A stretch of DNA of 46,559 nt from Thermoplasmatota archaeon (GTDB taxonomy: Archaea > Thermoplasmatota > JASEFT01), in contig JASEFT010000004.1 in NCBI GenBank assembly GCA_030018475.1, positions 1 to 46,559 of the forward strand. Reading direction: 5' to 3'. The notes under the pieces were generated by a model. The model was not told where the DNA came from, did not search any database, and was given only the letters and a program-made list of their open reading frames with translations. Positions 17,066 to 44,770 of the stretch are shown here, piece after piece (position 1 is the stretch's first letter; each line of letters begins with the position of its first letter). The position numbers were made by a program, and so were the translations under genes.

Positions 17066-17138
17066 TTAATAGCTGGATTTCTCACAAATGACAATTTAAA
17101 CCTATCGTGTACAGAACTCTAGCAGAACATTGTATACC

Positions 17139-17159
17139 AATAAAAGCCCGAAGTGGAGA
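17139..17159 (-). terminator. T-rich stretch after tRNA-Ala (GGGCTTTTATT on the minus strand)
   Basis: Oligo-T tract directly downstream of the tRNA-Ala discriminator base. Confidence 0.3.
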
Positions 17160-17173
17160 TGGACCCGTCGGGA

Positions 17174-17284
17174 ATCTCGATCTCCAGATGAAATACGATT
17201 TATTCTGCACAAAAATGCTTGCGCATTTTTGTGATTCGGATGAGAGCGGAGCTCTCATCCTCTCTCGCATTTCCTTCGGAAATG
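17174..17284 (-). other. tRNA-Ala intron 2 (111 nt, T-loop position 59/60)
   Basis: hBHBh': T-stem TCGGG/CCCGA, central helix UUCG/CGAG, bulges AGC and AUU, inner helix AUUUCC/GGAGAU. The body holds three perfect hairpins: GCATTTCC/GGAAATGC, GGATGAGAGC/GCTCTCATCC and CACAAAAATGC/GCATTTTTGTG. Confidence 0.75.
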
Positions 17285-17306
17285 CTCGAACCCGAGTCCT
17301 CCACAT

Positions 17307-17366
17307 ATCTGGGAAAAGAATGGATTAACCACCGTTTTTCTTTCTTCCCCTGAAAGGTTCCTTTCT
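17307..17366 (-). other. tRNA-Ala intron 1 (60 nt, canonical 37/38 position)
   Basis: hBHBh' layout: anticodon stem, CUUG/CCAG central helix (one mismatch), 3-nt bulges CAA and AUA, inner helix GAAAGG/CUUUUC. Confidence 0.75.
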
Positions 17367-17403
17367 TGCAAGTGTGGCGATCTTCCACTGATCTACGGGC
17401 CCG

Positions 17404-17485
17404 AGCCCTTTCTTTCTCTTTTTCAAAGAGAAAGAAAGCGTTCACGGAAAGAAAGAGAAACTAGGTTATCCTGTAAGGGATAACC
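17404..17485 (+). repeat. three-strand homopurine/homopyrimidine module A (hairpin + mirror-repeat third tract + flanking 8-bp hairpin)
   Basis: AGCCC; Y 17408-17421 CTTTCTTTCTCTTT; loop TTC; R1 17425-17438 AAAGAGAAAGAAAG (perfect complement); linker CGTTCACG; R2 17447-17460 GAAAGAAAGAGAAA (exact reverse of R1); then GGTTATCC-TGTAAG-GGATAACC. Confidence 0.8.
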
Positions 17486-17550
17486 TTAACCATCGTTTGT
17501 TGCTACGCAATCAGTATTCGCAGTTGCATTAACAACCTTCGTATTCTCAA

Positions 17551-17628
17551 GGGTTACAAAGTAACCCTTGCTTCTCTTCTTTTTCCGTCAACGCTTTTTC
17601 TTCTCTTCTCAAGAGAAGAAAAAGGGCT
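17551..17628 (-). repeat. three-strand homopurine/homopyrimidine module B (same architecture as A, inverted orientation)
   Basis: On the plus strand: GGGTTAC-AAA-GTAACCC; Y2 17572-17585 TTCTCTTCTTTTTC; linker CGTCAACG; Y1 17594-17607 CTTTTTCTTCTCTT (exact reverse of Y2); loop CTC; R 17611-17624 AAGAGAAGAAAAAG (perfect complement of Y1); GGCT. Confidence 0.8.
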
Positions 17629-17649
17629 GTAGCTGATAAAGATTTTCTA

Positions 17650-17657
17650 ATATTAAA
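17650..17657 (-). promoter_or_regulatory. TATA-like box TTTAATAT (minus strand), 21 nt upstream of the AGCC that opens module B
   Basis: A/T octamer at archaeal TATA-to-start spacing. The same octamer at similar spacing precedes module C (44063-44070). Confidence 0.3.
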
Positions 17658-17694
17658 TAGGTTTCTAGAAAAATATTTTAGTGGGCCCGATGAG

Positions 17695-17745
17695 ATTTTC
17701 AAGCCGCAACTACGGGTTGAAAATGTAGTGGACGTAGTCCACGGC
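17695..17745 (-). other. tRNA-Ile intron 2 (51 nt, T-loop; exact junction ambiguous within the repeated AAT)
   Basis: TTCGAAT|GCCGTGGACTACGTCCAC...TTGAAAAT|CTCAT. UUCG/UGAA central helix and GCCG/CGGC inner helix with one extra nucleotide (relaxed BHB). Confidence 0.7.
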
Positions 17746-17768
17746 ATTCGAACTCATGACCTCCCGGT

Positions 17769-17916
17769 CACTCACAGCCCTTTCTTACTAAGGAGTGGGA
17801 AGCACTCCTTACGTTCCTAGGAATTGCCTTAGGCAATTCCTGCGGATCTTTTTCACAAAAAGAAAGAAACTGACTGGCGTTTTTCTTTTCTCTTCCAGAG
17901 AAAAGAAAAAGGCTGC
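17769..17916 (-). other. tRNA-Ile intron 1 (148 nt, 37/38)
   Basis: hBHBh': CCCGG/CCGGG stem, CUGA/UGAG central helix (one G.G mismatch), bulges UAG and UGA, inner helix CAGCC/GGCUG. The body holds the AGCC-TTTTTCTTTTCTC-loop-GAGAAAAGAAAAA hairpin plus AGGAATTGCC/GGCAATTCCT and TAAGGAGTG/CACTCCTTA hairpins. Confidence 0.8.
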
Positions 17917-17975
17917 TATCAGCCGGGCGCTCCAACCATGCTAAGCTACGGGCCCACGTTAGCAGGTATGTATGC

Positions 17976-17983
17976 TATATATT
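17976..17983 (-). promoter_or_regulatory. TATA box (AATATATA on the minus strand) about 20 nt upstream of the tRNA-Ile 5' end
   Basis: A/T octamer at the expected archaeal promoter distance, directly after the mutL stop codon. Confidence 0.45.
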
Positions 17984-17984
17984 A

Positions 17985-19709
17985 CTAAGTTCTTTTAAAC
18001 ATTCTGTCAAGCTCTTTTCTACTCAGTTCTATAATTGTAGGTCTGCCGTGAGCACATGTATAAGGCTCTTCTAAAGAGCCCAGCTCTTTTATTAATTTCT
18101 CAATTTCTTGAATGCCTAGCTTTTCGTTAGCTTTAATTGCAGATTTACATGCCAATAGCTCTATTAGTTTGCGTCTCGTCCCTTCACCCGCTTCCAATTT
18201 GCCAGCACTTGCAAGTTCGTCAATAACATCTACAAAATCTTCTTTCTTCTTCAATTTTCCTAAGAGAATTGGCACTGTACTTAACTTATACATAGCTCTA
18301 CCGAAATTTTCTATTTTAAAGCCAAGCTCTTCAAATATTCCTAAATTGTTTCTCAGTACAAACTCTTCCTTAGGGTTGAGTTCCAGGACCAAAGGCTCAA
18401 GTAACTCTTGAATCTCAATATTCTCACTTTGAGCTTTCAATTTCTCCAGCATTATTCTTTCATGAGCTGCATGCTGGTCTATAACTAAAATAGCGTTTCG
18501 AGCCTCTGCAACTATAAAACTATCCAAAGCCTGTCCAACAATTCTAAGTTCAGGCAGTTTGCGACCCTCTTTTAAAACAGTAATTCTTTCTTCCTGCAAA
18601 TATTGTGGCTTGATAAGCTTTACACCTTCTTTGGGCAAGTGCGGCAATGGCTTTAGCTCAGGTGCTTTGTAAATTTCACTTATCAGTTTAATTTCTTCTC
18701 TTTTAGGCTCAGGAATTAATTTTTCATGGCTCAATGCTTCCCTAACGCAAGCGACTACAGAACCGTAAATTTCAATTTCATTGCTGAACTTGAGCTGGCT
18801 TTTTGTAGGATGTATGTTCACATCAACTAGTTTGGGATCAATTTTAATAGCCACTACTGCTACTGGGTATCTATCTTTAGTTACCAGTCTGAAATAGGCA
18901 TCTTTAATTGCATCGCTAACTATCCTGCTCGTTATATACCTCCTATTTACATAAATAGATTGGTGCGAAGGAGTAGCTCTTGTAAGCGAAGGTTTTGATA
19001 TATAACCTGAGATTGCAATTGTTTCTGTCTTGTAACTCAAAGGTATCAAAGCTCTTCCATACTCTTTTCCATAAATTGCAGTAATAGTTTCTAGCATGCT
19101 TTTAGAGCTTGGTGAGAATAGAAGCTCTTCATTGTTACTAACTAATTTAAATGTTTTATGGTAATGTATAAGCGCATATCTAGTAACAACATCAATTATA
19201 TGACTCAACTCTATCCTTCTGGATTTCAAGAATTTTCTTCTTACAGGTACATTATAGAATAGATTTTTTACGGTAACAGTTGTGCCAACTGGCGAGCCTA
19301 TATCTTTTGTTTCCTTCGGTTTGCCATATTCTACTGCAATGTAAGTGCCGACTTCGCATTCTTGCGTTTTAGTTACCATTTCCGTAAAACTCACAGATGC
19401 AATACTTGGTAAAGCTTCTCCTCTAAACCCTAAAGTTTCAAGTTTCTCTAAATCTTCTATTTTTTCTAGTTTGCTTGTAGAATGCCTTTCAAAAGCAAGC
19501 TTTGCGTCTTCTCTACTCATTCCGCAACCGTCATCGCGAACCAATATTTTTTTCAGTCCCGCATCTTCTACCTCAATATAAATTTTACTCGCGCCTGCGT
19601 CAAGGGCGTTTTCTACAAGCTCTTTCACGACACTTGCAGGTCTTTCTATAACTTCTCCGGCAGCAATTTTAGAAATTGTCTCGCTATCAAGGATTTTTAT
19701 TTTCTGCAT
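17985..19709 (-). CDS. mutL: DNA mismatch repair protein MutL
   Basis: GHKL ATPase motifs (AGEVIERPASVVKELVENALDAG, DDGCGM), C-terminal dimerisation domain with QHAAHER. Confidence 0.92.
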   Translation of the reverse strand: MQKIKILDSETISKIAAGEVIERPASVVKELVENALDAGASKIYIEVEDAGLKKILVRDDGCGMSREDAKLAFERHSTSKLEKIEDLEKLETLGFRGEALPSIASVSFTEMVTKTQECEVGTYIAVEYGKPKETKDIGSPVGTTVTVKNLFYNVPVRRKFLKSRRIELSHIIDVVTRYALIHYHKTFKLVSNNEELLFSPSSKSMLETITAIYGKEYGRALIPLSYKTETIAISGYISKPSLTRATPSHQSIYVNRRYITSRIVSDAIKDAYFRLVTKDRYPVAVVAIKIDPKLVDVNIHPTKSQLKFSNEIEIYGSVVACVREALSHEKLIPEPKREEIKLISEIYKAPELKPLPHLPKEGVKLIKPQYLQEERITVLKEGRKLPELRIVGQALDSFIVAEARNAILVIDQHAAHERIMLEKLKAQSENIEIQELLEPLVLELNPKEEFVLRNNLGIFEELGFKIENFGRAMYKLSTVPILLGKLKKKEDFVDVIDELASAGKLEAGEGTRRKLIELLACKSAIKANEKLGIQEIEKLIKELGSLEEPYTCAHGRPTIIELSRKELDRMFKRT

Positions 19710-22300
19710 TTCTTTTTTAGCTCCCCAATTTTTATAAGAGCTTCTAAAGGCGTTAGTTTATTAATATCAAGCTCTTTCAACTCTTTGATTACTTCGCTAT
19801 CTTCGCTACTAAGTGAAGGTAGTATAAGCTGGGTATATCTAGGAGAAATAGTCCTTATTTTTTTATCTTCGCTAACAACATCTATCATACTTTCATACTC
19901 TAATTTTTTTAATATCTCTTCAGCATGCTTTACTAATTCTTTAGGTAAGCCTGCAAGCGCAGCTACCTTTACTCCATAACTTTTATTTGTACCTCCTGGT
20001 ATGAGCTTTCTCAGAAATATTATTTCGTCTTTCTCTTCTTTAACTGCAATATTGTAATTCACTACGCCATGGAGAACTTCTGCAAGCTCTGTTAAATGAT
20101 GATAATGTGTGGCGAACATTGTTTTTGCACCTATTTTTTTGCTATGAATATACTCCGCAACAGCCCATGCAATGCTCAAGCCATCAAAAGTACTAGTTCC
20201 TCTACCTATCTCGTCAAGTAGAATCAAAGATTTAGAAGTTGCATTCTTTAAAATATTAGCAACTTCTGTCATTTCTACCATGAAAGTAGATTGCCCTCTA
20301 ACTAAATCATCGAAAGCGCCAACCCTTGTGAATATTCTGTCCACAATTCCAATGCTGGCATATTTAGCAGGAACGAAACTACCTATCTGCGCAAGTAAAG
20401 TTATAAGAGCTACCTGGCGCATGTATGTAGATTTTCCAGACATGTTAGGCCCCGTGATAATCATCATTTTGTTCCCTCTGCAATCTAGCAAAGTATCATT
20501 AGGTACAAAGCTCTGAGTAGCACGCTCCACTACAGGATGTCTTCCATCTACAATTTTAATAATATCATCTTCGGTAATCTCAGGCTTGGTATAATTATTT
20601 GCAACTGCAGTAACTGCTAAAGAGTAAATAGTATCTATTACCCCGACAGCTTTTGCAGTCTCTAACACTCTATTAGCTTGCTCTGCTATACTTTTACGCA
20701 CTTTCTGAAAAAGCTCAGCTTCTAAATTTTTCACACGCTCTTCTGCAGTTATTATGAGGGCTTCTTTCGCCTTTAGCTCTTCAGTTGTAAATCTTTCTGC
20801 GTTAGCTAGAGTTTGCTTTCTAATATAATCTTGAGGCACTAATTTTAAATTAGCCCTACTCACTTCAATATAATATCCGAAAATACTTGTATAGCCCACT
20901 TTAAGCGATTTTATGCCTGTTCTTGCTCTTTCCCTTGCTTCTAGCGTGGTTATCCAATTCTTGCCTCCTTGAAGCTCGTTCCTTAAGCTATCAAGCTCTT
21001 TATCATAACCTTTTCTGATAATACCAATTACTTCTTTGATGTGCGTGGGGGGCTCTTCAACGATAGCATTTTCTATAAGCTCAGCAATATCTTCAAGGCT
21101 ATCTATTCGCTCAGCTAACTCCTTTAGAATGCTAACCGCCAATAAATTATCAGGAATGCTAAGAACGAGCTTTTTCAGCTCTTTCGAAAACTTAACTGAG
21201 TTTTTTAAGTTTATAATATCTCTAGGAGTAGCATTACCGTAAGAAATTCTAGTGATGAGCCTCTCTAAATCTTTTATTTTGCTCAACCGCTCTTCTAAAT
21301 CCTTTCTTAAAAAAATATCTTTAACTAAAATTTCAACTGCATTCAAACGCTTTATGATTTCAGATTTGTCTATTAAAGGACAGAGAAGCCACCTTCTTAG
21401 AGTTCTTGCACCCATTCCTGTGAGAGTGCTATCTAAAACAGCAACTAACGTATTATTCTCGCTGCCGTCGCGCACATTTTGCAAAAGCTCTAAATTCCTT
21501 GCTGTGGTAGCGTCTAGCCCCATGTATTGAGTTGATAAATAATGTTTTATTTTAGCGATATGTGGAATTGATTTTTGAGTCTCTTCTAAATATGAAAGTA
21601 CAGCTCCTGAAGCTCTTATAGCAAGCTCCAGATTCTCAATTTCCAAAATCTCTCCTTTAAAAAGCTCTTTTAGCTTTCTTAGCGCTTTCTCATACTCAAA
21701 TTCTTTCTCAGAATATTCTGTTATGTATATGCTACGAGCTACGAAAAGCTCCTTCAACTTACTGTTCTCAATTATTGTGTGAGGTGCTATAACCTCAGAG
21801 GGCTTAAATCTAGAAATCTCAGAGCTTAGCTTCTCATAGCTACTATCTAGCTCTAGTTGAGTAGTTAGAAACTCGCCTGTAGAAATATCTACGAAAGCGA
21901 CTCCTAAACCATTATTAGATCCCACCATCGCCATCAAATAGTTATTAGCTTTCTCTGACAGTATAGAATCTTCAAGTATCGTCCCTGGCGTAATTACTCT
22001 AACTACATCTCTTTTAACGACTCCTTTCGCTAGTTTAGGATCTTCTAACTGCTCACAAATAGCTACTTTATAGCCTTTTCTAACAAGTCTATTGAGGTAG
22101 GCATCGAGCGCATGATAAGGCACGCCTGCTAAAGGCGCATTTTCACGAGATGTTAATACAATATTAAGCTCTTTTGAAACGAGCTGAGCATCTTCATAAA
22201 AAGTTTCGTAGAAATCACCAACTCTAAACAATAATATTGTATTTGGATATTTCTGCTTGATCGCTTGATATTGCGCCATCATAGGCGTAAGCTTTACCAA
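19697..22300 (-). CDS. mutS: DNA mismatch repair protein MutS
   Basis: TPMMAQY N-terminus, Walker A GPNMSGKST, DEIGRGTST, TH(Y/F)H motifs; overlaps mutL by 13 nt. Confidence 0.92.
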   Translation of the reverse strand: MVKLTPMMAQYQAIKQKYPNTILLFRVGDFYETFYEDAQLVSKELNIVLTSRENAPLAGVPYHALDAYLNRLVRKGYKVAICEQLEDPKLAKGVVKRDVVRVITPGTILEDSILSEKANNYLMAMVGSNNGLGVAFVDISTGEFLTTQLELDSSYEKLSSEISRFKPSEVIAPHTIIENSKLKELFVARSIYITEYSEKEFEYEKALRKLKELFKGEILEIENLELAIRASGAVLSYLEETQKSIPHIAKIKHYLSTQYMGLDATTARNLELLQNVRDGSENNTLVAVLDSTLTGMGARTLRRWLLCPLIDKSEIIKRLNAVEILVKDIFLRKDLEERLSKIKDLERLITRISYGNATPRDIINLKNSVKFSKELKKLVLSIPDNLLAVSILKELAERIDSLEDIAELIENAIVEEPPTHIKEVIGIIRKGYDKELDSLRNELQGGKNWITTLEARERARTGIKSLKVGYTSIFGYYIEVSRANLKLVPQDYIRKQTLANAERFTTEELKAKEALIITAEERVKNLEAELFQKVRKSIAEQANRVLETAKAVGVIDTIYSLAVTAVANNYTKPEITEDDIIKIVDGRHPVVERATQSFVPNDTLLDCRGNKMMIITGPNMSGKSTYMRQVALITLLAQIGSFVPAKYASIGIVDRIFTRVGAFDDLVRGQSTFMVEMTEVANILKNATSKSLILLDEIGRGTSTFDGLSIAWAVAEYIHSKKIGAKTMFATHYHHLTELAEVLHGVVNYNIAVKEEKDEIIFLRKLIPGGTNKSYGVKVAALAGLPKELVKHAEEILKKLEYESMIDVVSEDKKIRTISPRYTQLILPSLSSEDSEVIKELKELDINKLTPLEALIKIGELKKKCRK

Positions 22301-31629: not shown

Positions 31630-31965
31630 ATCTAAGTGTAGTGATCGTATTGAACTCTGGTTGATCCTGCCAGAGGTCGCCGCTATTGGGATACGCTTAA
31701 GCCATGCGAGTCTAAGGAACGCAAGTTCCTTGGCGTACTGCTCAGTAACACGTGGATAATTTACCCTTAGGTGGGGAATAACTTCGGGAAACTGAGGATA
31801 ATACCCCATAGGCTTAGAATGCTGGAATGCTTCTAAGCTCAAAGCTTCGGCGCCTAAGGATAAGTCTGTGGCCTATTAGGTTGTAGCAAGTGTAACTTAC
31901 TTGCTAGCCTACGATGGGTACGGGCGCTGAGAGGCGTTGCCCGGAGATGGACTCTGAGACATGAG

Positions 31966-31997
<32 letters not shown>

Positions 31998-32384
31998 ACT
32001 CCACAATGTGCGCAAGCACGATGGGGGAATCCCAAGTGCCTATACTTAATGTATAGGCTGTTCCCTTGTCCAAAAAACAAGGGGAGTAAGGGCTGGGTAA
32101 GACGGGTGCCAGCCGCCGCGGTAATACCCGCAGCCCAAGTGGCGATCACTTTTATTTGGTCTAAAACGTCCGTAGCTGGTTCAGTAAATTTTTGGGTAAA
32201 TCGAAATGCTTAACATTTCGAATTCCGAGAAGACTGCTGGACTTGAGACAGAGTGGGGTCAGAAGTACTCCTGGGGTAGGGGTGAAATCCTGTAATCCTA
32301 GGAGGACTACCAGTGGCGAAGGCGTCTGACTAAAGCTGCTCTGACAGTGAGGGACGAAGCCCTGGGGCGCAAACGGGATTAGAT

Positions 32385-32483
32385 AGAAGCCTTTCTTTCT
32401 CTTTTCGGAAAAGAGAAAGAAACTCTTCAGGGAAAGAGAAAAGAAAATTTCTTTTTTCTTTTCCCCTGAAGGACTTCCTAGAT
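32385..32483 (+). other. 16S rRNA mini-intron (99 nt) in the 790 loop, with a canonical BHB
   Basis: GGGATTAGAT|A...AT|ACCCCGG. Outer helix CGGG/CCCG, central helix UUAG/CUAG, bulges AUA and AUA, inner helix GAAGCC/GG(A)CUUC. Splicing restores GGATTAGATACCCCGGTAGTCC. Confidence 0.8.
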
Positions 32484-32582
32484 ACCCCGGTAGTCCAGGG
32501 TGTAAACGCTGCAGACTTGGTGCAGGGGAAGCTACGAGCTTGCCCTGTGCCGGAGAGAAGTTGTTAAGTCTGCTACCTGGGG

Positions 32583-32629
<47 letters not shown>

Positions 32630-33036
32630 GCAACGGGTGGAGCGTGCGGTTTAATTGGATTCAACGCCGAGAAGCTTACCGGGGGCGACGGATATATGAA
32701 GGTCAAGCTAACGACTTTACCAGATTATCCGAGAGGTGGTGCATGGCCGTCGTCAGTTCGTACCGTAAGGCATTCTGTTAAGTCAGATAACGAACAAGAC
32801 CCCTGCTTTTAGTTGCAAACCGGAGCTCCGGCTCTGGTGCGACACTAAAGGGACTGCTGGCGCTAAGTCAGAGGAAGGAGGGGGCTACGGTAGGTCAGTA
32901 TGCCCCTAATCCCCCGGGCTACACGCGCGCTACAAAGGCTGGGACAATGGGCTACGATGCCGAAAGGCAAAGTCAATCCCTAAACCCAGTCATAGTTCGG
33001 ATTGAGGATTGCAACTCATCCTCATGAAGCTGGAAT

Positions 33037-33086
33037 TCGCAGGAGTAAACTCCTTCTCTCAGCAGTTTGCTCCGCAAACAGCAGAT
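33037..33086 (+). other. second ~50-nt insertion in the 16S rRNA (between GGAAT and CCGTAGTAATCGCG); boundaries approximate
   Basis: Conserved GCTGGAAT(C)CGTAGTAATCGCG is interrupted. The insert folds into AGGAG-TAAA-CTCCT and CAGCAGTTTGC-TCC-GCAAACAGCAG (two A.A mismatches). Confidence 0.65.
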
Positions 33087-33339
33087 CCGTAGTAATCGCG
33101 TATCAAAAATGCGCGGTGAATATGCCCCTGCTCCTTGCACACACCGCCCGTCAAGCCATCCGAGTTGTGTCTAAGTGAGGGTGAAGTTATTGCTTCGCTC
33201 AAACTTGGGTTCAGCGAGGAGGGCTAAGTCGTAACAAGGTATCCGTAGGGGAACCTGCGGATGGATCACCTCCTACGTTATAGAAAGGTGTGATTCGAAG
33301 CTGCTTGCAATGCAGCTAATGACGCAGGTCTGCCTTGAA

Positions 33340-33487: not shown

Positions 33488-33973
33488 CTAAATCTCACTA
33501 ATTCTCCTCAGGACATCTCTGTAAAGCAGTGCGTTTATTCTAAAATCACTTTCAACTAATTTGTGAATTATATCTAATGCTTTCTTCTTTTTAACTTTCT
33601 TACTCTCAACAGCGCCAACTATCAAACCTAACAGCTCCGTGTACTCTCTCTTTTCAATATCTGCTATCCGCCTTGCACTTAATTCATCAATAATTAGTCT
33701 ATTGCCTTTAGGAGTAAGAAACAGTGTAGCTTCACCTTTATCAAGACCGTATTTCGTAAATTTAGTTACATTGACACTAGTTATTACTGATATTATCCAA
33801 TCACCAATCGCACTCTTGATACGCTCGTTTTCCGGAAAATCGTAGCGCAAAAGCCCTTTCTCAATCGTTTTCGTTATATACACCTTACCAAACAACTCTT
33901 TTAAAAACTCGAGCTCTCCAATTTTAGCTAATGCAATTAGAGTGGAGGAATCTACAAAAGTACGCATAATCAC
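33488..33973 (-). CDS. PIN-domain protein (DUF3368/COG2405-like), putative toxin
   Basis: N-terminal FVDSSTLIALAKIG PIN-type acidic motif, 161 aa, 4-nt overlap with the upstream small gene. Confidence 0.65.
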   Translation of the reverse strand: MIMRTFVDSSTLIALAKIGELEFLKELFGKVYITKTIEKGLLRYDFPENERIKSAIGDWIISVITSVNVTKFTKYGLDKGEATLFLTPKGNRLIIDELSARRIADIEKREYTELLGLIVGAVESKKVKKKKALDIIHKLVESDFRINALLYRDVLRRISEI

Positions 33974-34284
33974 CGCTTAAGCCACTTTTTAGATTTTTCG
34001 ATATCGCGCGCTAATTCAGTTGCAGAATATCTAAAAAACGGTATTTCCCTTCTCGCTAGGTAATCACACATCTCCTGAATACTTACATCTGCAAACTCTG
34101 CAGCTTTACAAAGAGTAAATTCGTTACTCAGATATTTTTTCATTGCAATTTCAAGTTTCAAAGCTTTTATACCCTCATGAAGCGCATTGCGAGCCACTTC
34201 CGATTTTGACATATGCAGAACTTTTGTAAGCTCTTCTACGTCCTCAACTTCCTCTTCCGGCAATCGTATCTGTAAATTCTCCAT
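33970..34284 (-). CDS. UPF0175-like antitoxin with N-terminal ribbon-helix-helix
   Basis: RHH-like LQIRLPEEEVEDVEEL...SKSEVARNAL, then a UPF0175-like helix region (LCKAAEFADVSIQEM); paired with the PIN gene. Confidence 0.6.
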   Translation of the reverse strand: MENLQIRLPEEEVEDVEELTKVLHMSKSEVARNALHEGIKALKLEIAMKKYLSNEFTLCKAAEFADVSIQEMCDYLARREIPFFRYSATELARDIEKSKKWLKR

Positions 34285-43870: not shown

Positions 43871-43905
43871 ACTCAGCGACGAAGTTCTTCTTGACGAGCT
43901 TTTTA
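43867..43905 (+). repeat. 39-nt post-stop element, copy 2 (GTAAACTCAGCGACGAAGTTCTTCTTGACGAGCTTTTTA)
   Basis: 35/39 identical to the reverse complement of 22758-22796. Begins one base before the TAA stop of hsp20. Confidence 0.6.
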
Positions 43906-44062
43906 ATGGTATCATTGACAAGAGCACAAAACGGTATAACTAAAAATCTTGGGAGTACTGTTTATTTAACTTAGCTTTTCTTTACAAAACTCATTTCTCG
44001 CGTCTCTAGACTTAGTAGAATCTATCTTTAGTCTGGATAAAAAACGATAATTTTCTAATCAT

Positions 44063-44070
44063 TTTAATAT
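44063..44070 (+). promoter_or_regulatory. TATA-like box TTTAATAT, 23 nt upstream of the AGCC that opens module C
   Basis: Same octamer and similar spacing as upstream of module B. Confidence 0.3.
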
Positions 44071-44093
44071 CCATACTTGGATTAAATGAAAGA

Positions 44094-44152
44094 AGCCCTT
44101 TTCTTTTTCTTCCAAAGAAAAAGAAAAGTCCTTCAGGGGAAAAGAAAAAGAA
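44094..44152 (+). repeat. three-strand homopurine/homopyrimidine module C
   Basis: AGCC; C98+Y 44099-44111 TTTTCTTTTTCTT; loop CCA; R1 44115-44128 AAGAAAAAGAAAAG (perfect complement); linker TCCTTCAGGG; R2 44139-44152 GAAAAGAAAAAGAA (exact reverse of R1). Confidence 0.8.
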
Positions 44153-44188
44153 TAGAACAATATGCGAACTTGATTAGAAGGATATTAA

Positions 44189-44770
44189 ATGAAATATCTA
44201 ATTATTACATGTGGAGTAATAGGTACGGGCAAGAGTACAATTGCAAAAGCTCTTGCAAAGAGGACAGGTATGAAAGTCATATCCTCAGATTATGTCAGAA
44301 AGAGCATTGTTGCAGGTATTCCACCTGAAGCTCATAGATATGAAAAATTTGGTGAAGGCATATACTCGAAAGAATTCTCAGAAAGAACTTATCTAAAAAT
44401 GCTGGAGCTTGCAAAAGTGCAATTAACCAGAAACAAATCTGTTATTTTAGATGGCGCTTTTAGCAAAAGATGGCAACGCGTTAAAGCTTATGAGACTGCA
44501 AAAGAAACTGATGCAAGATTCTTGTGCGTTGAGTTCATATGCAGTAAAGAAGAGCTGATAAAGAGGCTTGAAAAAAGAGCTCTGAGCAAAAGAGGCGTTT
44601 CAAACGGAAGGATTGAGATACTAGCTGAGCATGAAGCTAGCTTTGAAAAGGTATCGGAATTTTCGGAAGAGCTGCACATTATAATTGATACCACATGTAG
44701 GAAAGAAGATTGCGTACAATCTGTTTTGGCTAGGCTGAACGAAAAGTTAAAGTTGAAACATTGCTATTAA
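44189..44770 (+). CDS. P-loop kinase (AAA_33/gluconate-kinase-like fold), substrate unknown
   Basis: Walker A GVIGTGKST near the N-terminus; 193 aa. Confidence 0.55.
   Translation: MKYLIITCGVIGTGKSTIAKALAKRTGMKVISSDYVRKSIVAGIPPEAHRYEKFGEGIYSKEFSERTYLKMLELAKVQLTRNKSVILDGAFSKRWQRVKAYETAKETDARFLCVEFICSKEELIKRLEKRALSKRGVSNGRIEILAEHEASFEKVSEFSEELHIIIDTTCRKEDCVQSVLARLNEKLKLKHCY

Follow-up and report, generated by a model that had tools for sequence, protein, structure and literature searches.

Among the systems already described, those closest to the repeat considered here are the intrastrand triplex elements of bacteria. In the PIT architecture, as the work of Hoyne et al. 2000 is relayed by Holder et al. 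2015 (PMC4666352), three tracts stand on one strand; the sequence definition asks for more than seven perfect triplets made by a pyrimidine tract (Y), a purine tract (R) and an antiparallel-identical R tract. As quoted in the same source, loops may be 0-10 nt long by the Hoyne limit and 1-6 nt by that of ITxF, purine-motif triplexes are reported to be unable to form in RNA while pyrimidine ones can, and TMECO loci are more often rearranged among E. coli strains.

Four other systems bear on the locus. H-DNA has a homopurine/homopyrimidine mirror repeat as its sequence criterion and does not need a third, inverted tract (PMC11667243). The transposition of archaeal BHB introns is thought to occur at the DNA level, and its mechanism is given as unknown in PMC4090602, which also summarises Fujishima et al. 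2010. With RNA, the relevant case is the ENE plus A-rich tract of MALAT1 and MEN-beta, the 3′ end of MALAT1 being made, according to PMC6379651 and PMC8457004, by RNase P cleavage beside a tRNA-like structure. Lastly, MITEs and REP-like repeats are short, non-coding and multi-copy, with inverted termini and strong hairpins.

The window, a term used here for the whole 46,559-nt stretch analysed, is ordinary chromosomal DNA from an uncultured member of the archaeal phylum Thermoplasmatota. It encodes exosome subunits, Pop5, a proteasome subunit and Moco biosynthesis, as well as MutS/MutL, a thermosome and GrpE-DnaK-DnaJ-Hsp20, and no transposase, integrase or reverse transcriptase is found in it. 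The MutS-MutL pair of this archaeon (17985-22300, minus strand) is of bacterial type, and the best match for its MutL in GTDB species genomes, from Methanoperedens, has only 43% identity. The subject here is a 61-nt module upstream of a kinase gene, the repeat family to which it belongs and what its third strand may be for. An A/T-rich archaeal triplex repeat with three-strand covariation that forms BHB introns is unreported in the literature searched.

Module C and its third tract

Module C lies on the plus strand at 44092-44152 and reads GAAG-CC-CTTTTCTTTTTCTT-CCA-AAGAAAAAGAAAAG-TC-CTTC-AGGG-GAAAAGAAAAAGAA. Its left terminus, GAAGCC (44092-44097), is also that with which an intron in the 16S rRNA gene begins. 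There follow Y1, the pyrimidine strand of a 14-bp stem (CTTTTCTTTTTCTT, 44098-44111), a 3-nt loop CCA (44112-44114) and R2, the purine strand (AAGAAAAAGAAAAG, 44115-44128), which is the exact reverse complement of Y1. A 10-nt linker (TCCTTCAGGG, 44129-44138), of the same type as the CTCTTCAGGG of the 16S intron, leads to the third tract, R3 (GAAAAGAAAAAGAA, 44139-44152), and this is the exact mirror, i.e. the reverse, of R2. An earlier note on this DNA had described both the perfect stem (44098-44128) and the reversed third tract, and direct reading bears it out on each; where it fell short was the extent of the hairpin, as GAAG (44092-44095) pairs with CTTC of the linker (44131-44134) and so adds to the 14-bp stem. 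The same note took the open reading frame at 44086-44328 for an artefact of the element, a judgement shared here because the frame is without a Pfam hit and is not called as a gene in L001, a strain introduced below.

Only three sites in the window give the order Y, loop, R, linker and mirrored R, namely module A (17408, plus), module B (17624, minus) and module C (44098, plus), together with a case in the 16S insert that, at 11/12 and in shifted register, is the weakest of the four. The pattern AGCC-Y14-N3-R14, which all five module hairpins fit, has five matches in the window and none in shuffles, and the six longest tight hairpins of the window are all module hairpins. Given the composition of the third tracts, an exact mirror is expected with a probability of 1/1001 in A and again in B, and of 1/364 in C. 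Across these three modules the mirror rule is obeyed by every one of 42 triples, with variation in 7 of the 14 columns. In the five hairpins all 70 stem pairs are Watson-Crick with 11 of 14 columns variable and not one G.T pair. The covariation was counted in a fixed register, a MAFFT alignment of the hairpins having shifted it, and the copies at hand number five to six, all from one genome lineage. That the three strands had changed together from module to module was an assertion of the earlier note which thus stands, as does its point that such a register is unlikely to arise by chance. Its counting of A, B and C as three independent cases needs correcting, A and B being the two inverted arms of one 225-nt element and not separate loci. 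Nor do these modules make up the full set, further copies being present in the 16S intron and in a tRNA-Ile intron.

The possibility that all of this is a chance product of low-complexity A/G-rich sequence, or an artefact of assembly, derives what plausibility it has from the low complexity of the tracts and from the occurrence of 12/14 near matches between unrelated purine tracts. It is effectively refuted by three exact 14/14/14 modules where shuffles have none, and by 1.71 Mb of unrelated loci, searched on either strand as negative controls and including 80 loci from a MutL search, in which the only three-tract module is the same locus in strain L001. Modules are moreover seen in independent assemblies, module C in L001 and module D with the start of module B in L084. 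Module C is real.

Modules C, A and B have the three-tract sequence of a PIT, each with 14 of 14 triplets. Loop 1 is 3 nt, and loop 2, which measures 10 nt in C as against 8 nt in the other two, is within the Hoyne limit and beyond that of ITxF. With PIT, BoxC and TMECO elements the modules share the consecutive Y, R and reverse-Hoogsteen R tracts of class II, the complement being class IV, and also a dispersed, multi-copy and mostly intergenic distribution tied to rearranged loci among close strains. There are also differences. TMECO elements are G/C-rich, with 9-nt stems and a fixed consensus (CCCTCNCCC...), whereas the archaeal modules are A/T-rich, have stems of 14 nt and a second loop of about 8-10 nt, and vary in tract sequence from copy to copy without loss of register; copies moreover occur within BHB introns and as arms of a larger element. 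Membership of BoxC/TMECO was considered and rejected, module C being A/T-rich, unrelated and without a match to the consensus CCCTCNCCC-N3-6-GGGNGAGGG-N3-GGGNGAGGG.

In Watson-Crick folds of either strand, as DNA or as RNA, the third tract is left unpaired. A search for a Watson-Crick partner gave only partial self-mirror overlaps of 7-11 nt that follow trivially from G-A(n)-G segments. To our knowledge a mirror repeat is meaningless for Watson-Crick pairing and for symmetric protein binding, and is the product of no copying mechanism. A triple helix is the one established structural meaning for it. Because the mirror is otherwise without meaning for pairing, protein binding or copying, the three-strand register is, as far as sequence can speak to it, best explained by an intrastrand triple helix. 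The plus strand has the order Y-R-R, so R3 would serve as the reverse-Hoogsteen strand, antiparallel to the purine strand (A.A-T and G.G-C; purine motif, class II). On the minus strand, with the order Y-Y-R, the complement of R3 would act as the Hoogsteen strand, made of pyrimidines and running parallel to the purine strand, with 11 T.A-T and 3 C+.G-C triplets (class IV). Neither is without cost: A-rich purine-motif triplexes are weak and the pyrimidine-motif strand requires cytosine protonation.

Relatives in introns and a tRNA spacer

The family is bounded by the motif (GA)AGCC...GGCU(UC). A 920-nt gap at 17066-17984 holds two minus-strand tRNA genes that ARAGORN did not find in the raw window and that Rfam also missed. 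After splicing by hand according to the BHB rule, with two introns removed per gene, ARAGORN accepts tRNA-Ile(GAT) and tRNA-Ala(TGC), the latter carrying G3:U70. The genes lie at 17682-17955 and 17160-17402 respectively (both minus), their introns being at positions 37/38 and 59/60. Between them, on the minus strand, is a two-armed element of 225 nt, AGCCC...GGGCT (17404-17628), whose left arm is module B (17572-17628) and whose right arm, module A (17404-17460), ends 5 nt before the 5′ end of tRNA-Ala. Pairing between the third tracts of the two arms, at 13 of 15 positions, was set aside as not significant for the composition.

Intron 1 of tRNA-Ile(GAT), 148 nt at position 37/38 (17769-17916, minus), starts G-CAGCC-Y14-GGA-R14 and ends GGCUG-UGAG-UG. 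The AGCC...GGCU ends of the family are therefore here the inner helix of the BHB (CAGCC/GGCUG). It contains the module D hairpin (17880-17914), for which the third tract is a pyrimidine tract and not a mirror. Intron 1 of tRNA-Ala(TGC), 60 nt (17307-17366, minus), is a degenerate relative in which CCTTTCAGGGG stands between two purine tracts (AGAAAGGAA-CCTTTCAGGGG-AAGAAAGAAAAA). The 59/60 introns of both tRNAs (17174-17284 and 17696-17746, minus) have a well-formed BHB and no purine/pyrimidine tracts, so the family does not take in every intron of the genome.

The closest relative of module C is a 99-nt BHB intron in the 790 loop of 16S rRNA (32385-32483, plus). Rfam places the 16S rRNA at 31654-33274 (plus) and aligns a 100-nt insert against one consensus nucleotide in the helix 24 loop, GGAUUAGAUA[..]CC. 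The insert follows the scheme A-GAAGCC-Y14-CGG-R14-CTCTTCAGGG-R14-A-Y15-CCCCTGAAGGA-CTTC-CTAGAT, or, read out, A-GAAGCC-TTTCTTTCTCTTTT-CGG-AAAAGAGAAAGAAA-CTCTTCAGGG-AAAGAGAAAAGAAA-A-TTTCTTTTTTCTTTT-CCCCTGAAGGA-CTTC-CTAGAT, and is flanked by the direct repeat TAGATA. Drawn by hand, the BHB is GGGA / UUAG / AU|A / GAAG ... CUUC / CUAG / AU|A / CCCC, with a UUAG/CUAG helix, two AUA bulges and a GAAG/CUUC inner helix, and cutting at both bulges yields exactly GGGAUUAGAUACCCCGG. With either gathering or permissive thresholds, Rfam finds the 16S only, and its matches to the modules are spurious miRNA-hairpin hits. The 16S gene is without an adjoining 23S gene. Just downstream of it is a PIN-like / ribbon-helix-helix (UPF0175) pair (33488-34284, minus) that is probably a toxin-antitoxin system. 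Exact-protein look-ups for the genes beside the 16S and at the left window edge returned nothing on record.

In both intron copies the element follows GAUA within the loop of a hairpin that has a G/C stem (16S, 32375-32385; tRNA-Ile, 17917-17927), the insertion sites being CGGG-AUUAGAUA^C-CCCG and CCCGG-CUGAUA^A-CCGGG, respectively, which suggests either a shared target or a shared constraint. The two copies, 32385-32483 and 17769-17916, lie in RNA genes, have BHB junctions and on removal restore the RNA. They resemble the transposing archaeal BHB introns of PMC4090602 and the Thermoproteales 16S introns of PMC4496867 in that similar introns occupy different sites (16S 790 loop, tRNA 37/38) with BHB junctions and no encoded protein. 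They depart from them in phylum, Thermoplasmatota, in having copies also outside RNA genes, in their triplex-type arms and in a member, module C, that is not an intron. A BHB intron at module C was rejected on the grounds that its central helix cannot form (AAUG versus AGGG) and that no RNA gene is detected there.

Module C and the 16S insert have in common GAAGCC and the CTTCAGGG linker, in the form YCTTCAGGG, while a 13-bp stem sequence is common to the 16S insert and module A. Module C aligns with the first ~60 nt or so of the 16S-type element and is without its fourth tract and right end; no right-hand arm for it is present downstream to the window end or in the next 6 kb on contig L085. 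This bears on the decidedly unlikely alternative that module C is a dead relic, a recently truncated and inactive intron element of 16S type with a register inherited from the master copy. The truncation accords with it, as does the fact that by hand analysis no BHB can be drawn around module C, and the strains differ there by a single linker G only. The mirror of module C (14/14) is, however, better than that of the complete 16S copy (11/12), and the alternative is in any case compatible with the explanation preferred below for the family, denying only a function at this locus.

As with MITEs and REP-like repeats, the members of the family are short, non-coding and multi-copy, with inverted termini AGCC...GGCU, strong hairpins and contig breaks at them. 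Unlike in those repeats, the arms of a single element lack mutual complementarity, each being internally self-consistent, a clear target duplication is absent save TAGATA at the 16S copy, and no partner transposase is seen in the window. Module C itself is one-ended.

The kinase gene, neighbouring strains and the RNA alternative

Module C is followed by a P-loop kinase gene (AAA_33; 44189-44770, plus), with the perfect 14+14 purine mirror repeat of R2 and R3 ending about 36-37 nt 5′ of its ATG at 44189. The earlier note proposed that the module could be a structured 5′ leader or a promoter-proximal site of H-DNA formation. Exact or 99% identical copies of the kinase gene are on four other contigs. 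In L001 (GCA_030019275.1), from a strain 99.4% identical, module C is present with one extra G in the linker. Homology with L001 ends on the left at 44083, 9 nt left of GAAGCC, which is either a synteny break or an assembly join; the breakpoint could reflect joining at a repeat by the assembler instead of rearrangement. On the left L001 has another gene, and its stop codon stands 6 nt from GAAGCC. Where the window has hsp20 (43871-44082), L001 has AdoHcyase and a 330-aa ORF (1-2093). Contigs L002 and L085 start 9-10 nt right of module C, L083 ends at the hsp20 stop codon, and L084, which has module D and the first part of module B, ends inside the B hairpin.

The one more distant kinase ortholog found, L086 (67% identity, JGI 3300038440), has the same downstream genes and upstream no purine/pyrimidine module, so that among the strains compared module C precedes the kinase only in those that are near-identical. 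At the same upstream position (60-120) L086 has an unrelated GC-rich pyrimidine/purine hairpin (CTCCTCCCCCACCAAACC...GGTTTGGGAGGGG); with this different hairpin there and the module absent, a conserved cis-regulatory kinase leader was rejected. The idea of a kinase-specific leader or promoter device is not supported by comparison with this ortholog, and it sits no better with an architecture that recurs in the 16S intron, the tRNA-Ile intron and the tRNA spacer. Because L086 lacks the module, the left flank of L001 is different and the family is found in introns and a spacer, module C is held not to be kinase-specific, and it is probably not a dedicated regulator of that gene. More widely, the C/16S-type pattern GAAGCC-Y14-N3-R14-NN-CTTCAGGG has no match in GTDB species genomes, JGI metagenomes or IMG/VR. 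A metagenome scan with the 16S exon-intron junction GGGATTAGATAGAAG gave no 16S gene among the 120 matches listed, all of which are random, and MutL relatives at 73%, 72% and 59% identity are without a tRNA cluster downstream.

A promoter-proximal role could still be imagined for the DNA, with the R2/R3 mirror extruding as H-DNA under negative supercoiling to tune kinase transcription. The purine mirror repeat, with 14-nt arms and a 10-nt spacer, is perfect and close upstream of the ATG, and the BRE/TATA of a short-leader mRNA would be expected in a position that the A-rich R3 overlaps. Since the ORF before the module stops 6 nt short of it in L001, a promoter for the kinase has to overlap with the module in that strain. 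We nevertheless regard this as very unlikely. For H-DNA the mirror repeat suffices, yet here the inverted repeat provided by Y1 is equally perfect, and with this additional exact inverted repeat both strands would be able to fold completely, no half being left unpaired. The same module also occurs in introns and beside tRNAs, places without a promoter, and it is absent from the ortholog. A 10-nt spacer is long for H-DNA by non-B DNA criteria.

A different alternative, which we consider rather unlikely, operates with RNA. Transcription from the TATA-like TTTAATAT at 44063-44070 (plus), 29 nt 5′ of the module start, would make module C either a small RNA or a structured 5′ end for the kinase mRNA, and the family would be of structured RNAs freed from host transcripts by the splicing endonuclease, in the case of introns, or by RNase P, in the case of the tRNA-Ala leader. 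The closing helix, the hairpins and, in the class IV arm, a U.A-U/C+.G-C triple helix would guard the ends. There are only eight occurrences of TTTAATAT in the window, both strands together, and yet one is 29 nt upstream of each of the two non-intron element starts (44063-44070; 17657-17650), preceded in each case by TTTTCTAR. All four elements are in sense orientation relative to the host transcript, the AGCC/GGCU ends coincide with the BHB inner helix and the RNase P subunit Pop5 is encoded in the window. On the kinase side of module C stands a third TTTAATAT (44189-44182, minus strand), directed towards the module; it could drive an antisense RNA of ~80 nt corresponding exactly to the class IV module.

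Module A also speaks for the RNA alternative, as its tRNA-sense RNA has the order H-Y-R, i.e. Hoogsteen U/C, Watson-Crick U/C and A/G tracts, a topology resembling the MALAT1 ENE plus A-rich tract; and, with its end 5 nt before the tRNA-Ala 5′ end, the module stops just short of an RNase P site. Module C differs from MALAT1 and MEN-beta, its kinase-sense RNA having the opposite, purine-motif order and H-Y-R being found only antisense. A stem-flanked U-rich internal loop and an Rfam match to the ENE are both absent, and its host is prokaryotic. An ENE-type RNA triple helix for module C was accordingly rejected, the order being Y-R-R in kinase sense and an Rfam hit being absent. For the RNA alternative as a whole the difficulty is that C, B and the 16S copy are all Y-R-R in the sense RNA, the motif reported not to form, which leaves their exact mirrors unexplained. 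The TATA box is missing in L001, the ortholog is without the module, there is no Rfam match and, among the 70 stem pairs, none is G.U.

A DNA-level reading and what it would mean

The reading that we prefer, and to which we give an even chance, is that module C is a truncated solo left arm from a family of non-autonomous and probably mobile elements, with the triplex acting on DNA. In each arm a short linker joins a 14-bp pyrimidine/purine hairpin to a third tract that keeps the mirror register, and each of the two DNA strands could, after opening of the duplex, fold back to form an intrastrand triple helix. A structure at the DNA level is favored on three grounds: modules B and C are perfect in spite of being class II in the sense transcript, the arms of the spacer element are equivalent to each other only when taken as DNA, and G.T is absent from the stems. 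We infer triplex formation, its seat in DNA over RNA and the mobility of the element. Selection for the triplex would then have acted on the element itself, via its propagation or its persistence as DNA. A replication or recombination hotspot may be a side effect, and the kinase would not be acted on, its nearness appearing incidental. Where an element landed in an RNA gene with a junction capable of forming a BHB, it could have survived as an intron, as with 16S and tRNA-Ile. The published view of archaeal intron transposition as a DNA-level process (PMC4090602) fits a family found both in and outside RNA genes.

Against this explanation, the sense orientation of four elements out of four and the TTTAATAT boxes 29 nt upstream fit an RNA role better than random insertion of DNA. 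Mobility is likewise to be read with caution, as no insertion polymorphism is seen, the 16S copy alone shows a target duplication (TAGATA), and the family is known from a single genome lineage.

A bolder proposal, on the unlikely side in our estimate, is that insertion of protein-less mobile DNA elements with intrastrand-triplex ends creates new BHB introns in archaeal rRNA and tRNA genes. In the 16S case both AUA bulges and the UUAG/CUAG central helix would come from the TAGATA repeat, and the inner helix from the GAAG/CUUC termini of the element; module C would be a copy of this element found outside an RNA gene. In a variant of this reading the class IV arm beside tRNA-Ala would be a prokaryotic MALAT1-like 3′-end triple helix made by RNase P.

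For the kinase gene the consequence is probably small. The family is distinct from known intrastrand triplex motifs in being A/T-rich and archaeal, in its 14-nt stems, in its three-strand covariation and in constituting a BHB-intron family. Natural triple helices have usually been inferred from a single sequence, and here differing paralogous copies keep all three strands in register; such covariation is the sort of evolutionary evidence by which RNA secondary structures were established, here applied to a triplex. With the same elements being both the cores of introns in essential RNA genes and present outside genes, the spread of archaeal BHB introns becomes testable in one genome. Should the proposal that these elements make mobile introns be true, it would provide a concrete mechanism for archaeal intron transposition and the first natural case of three-strand covariation.
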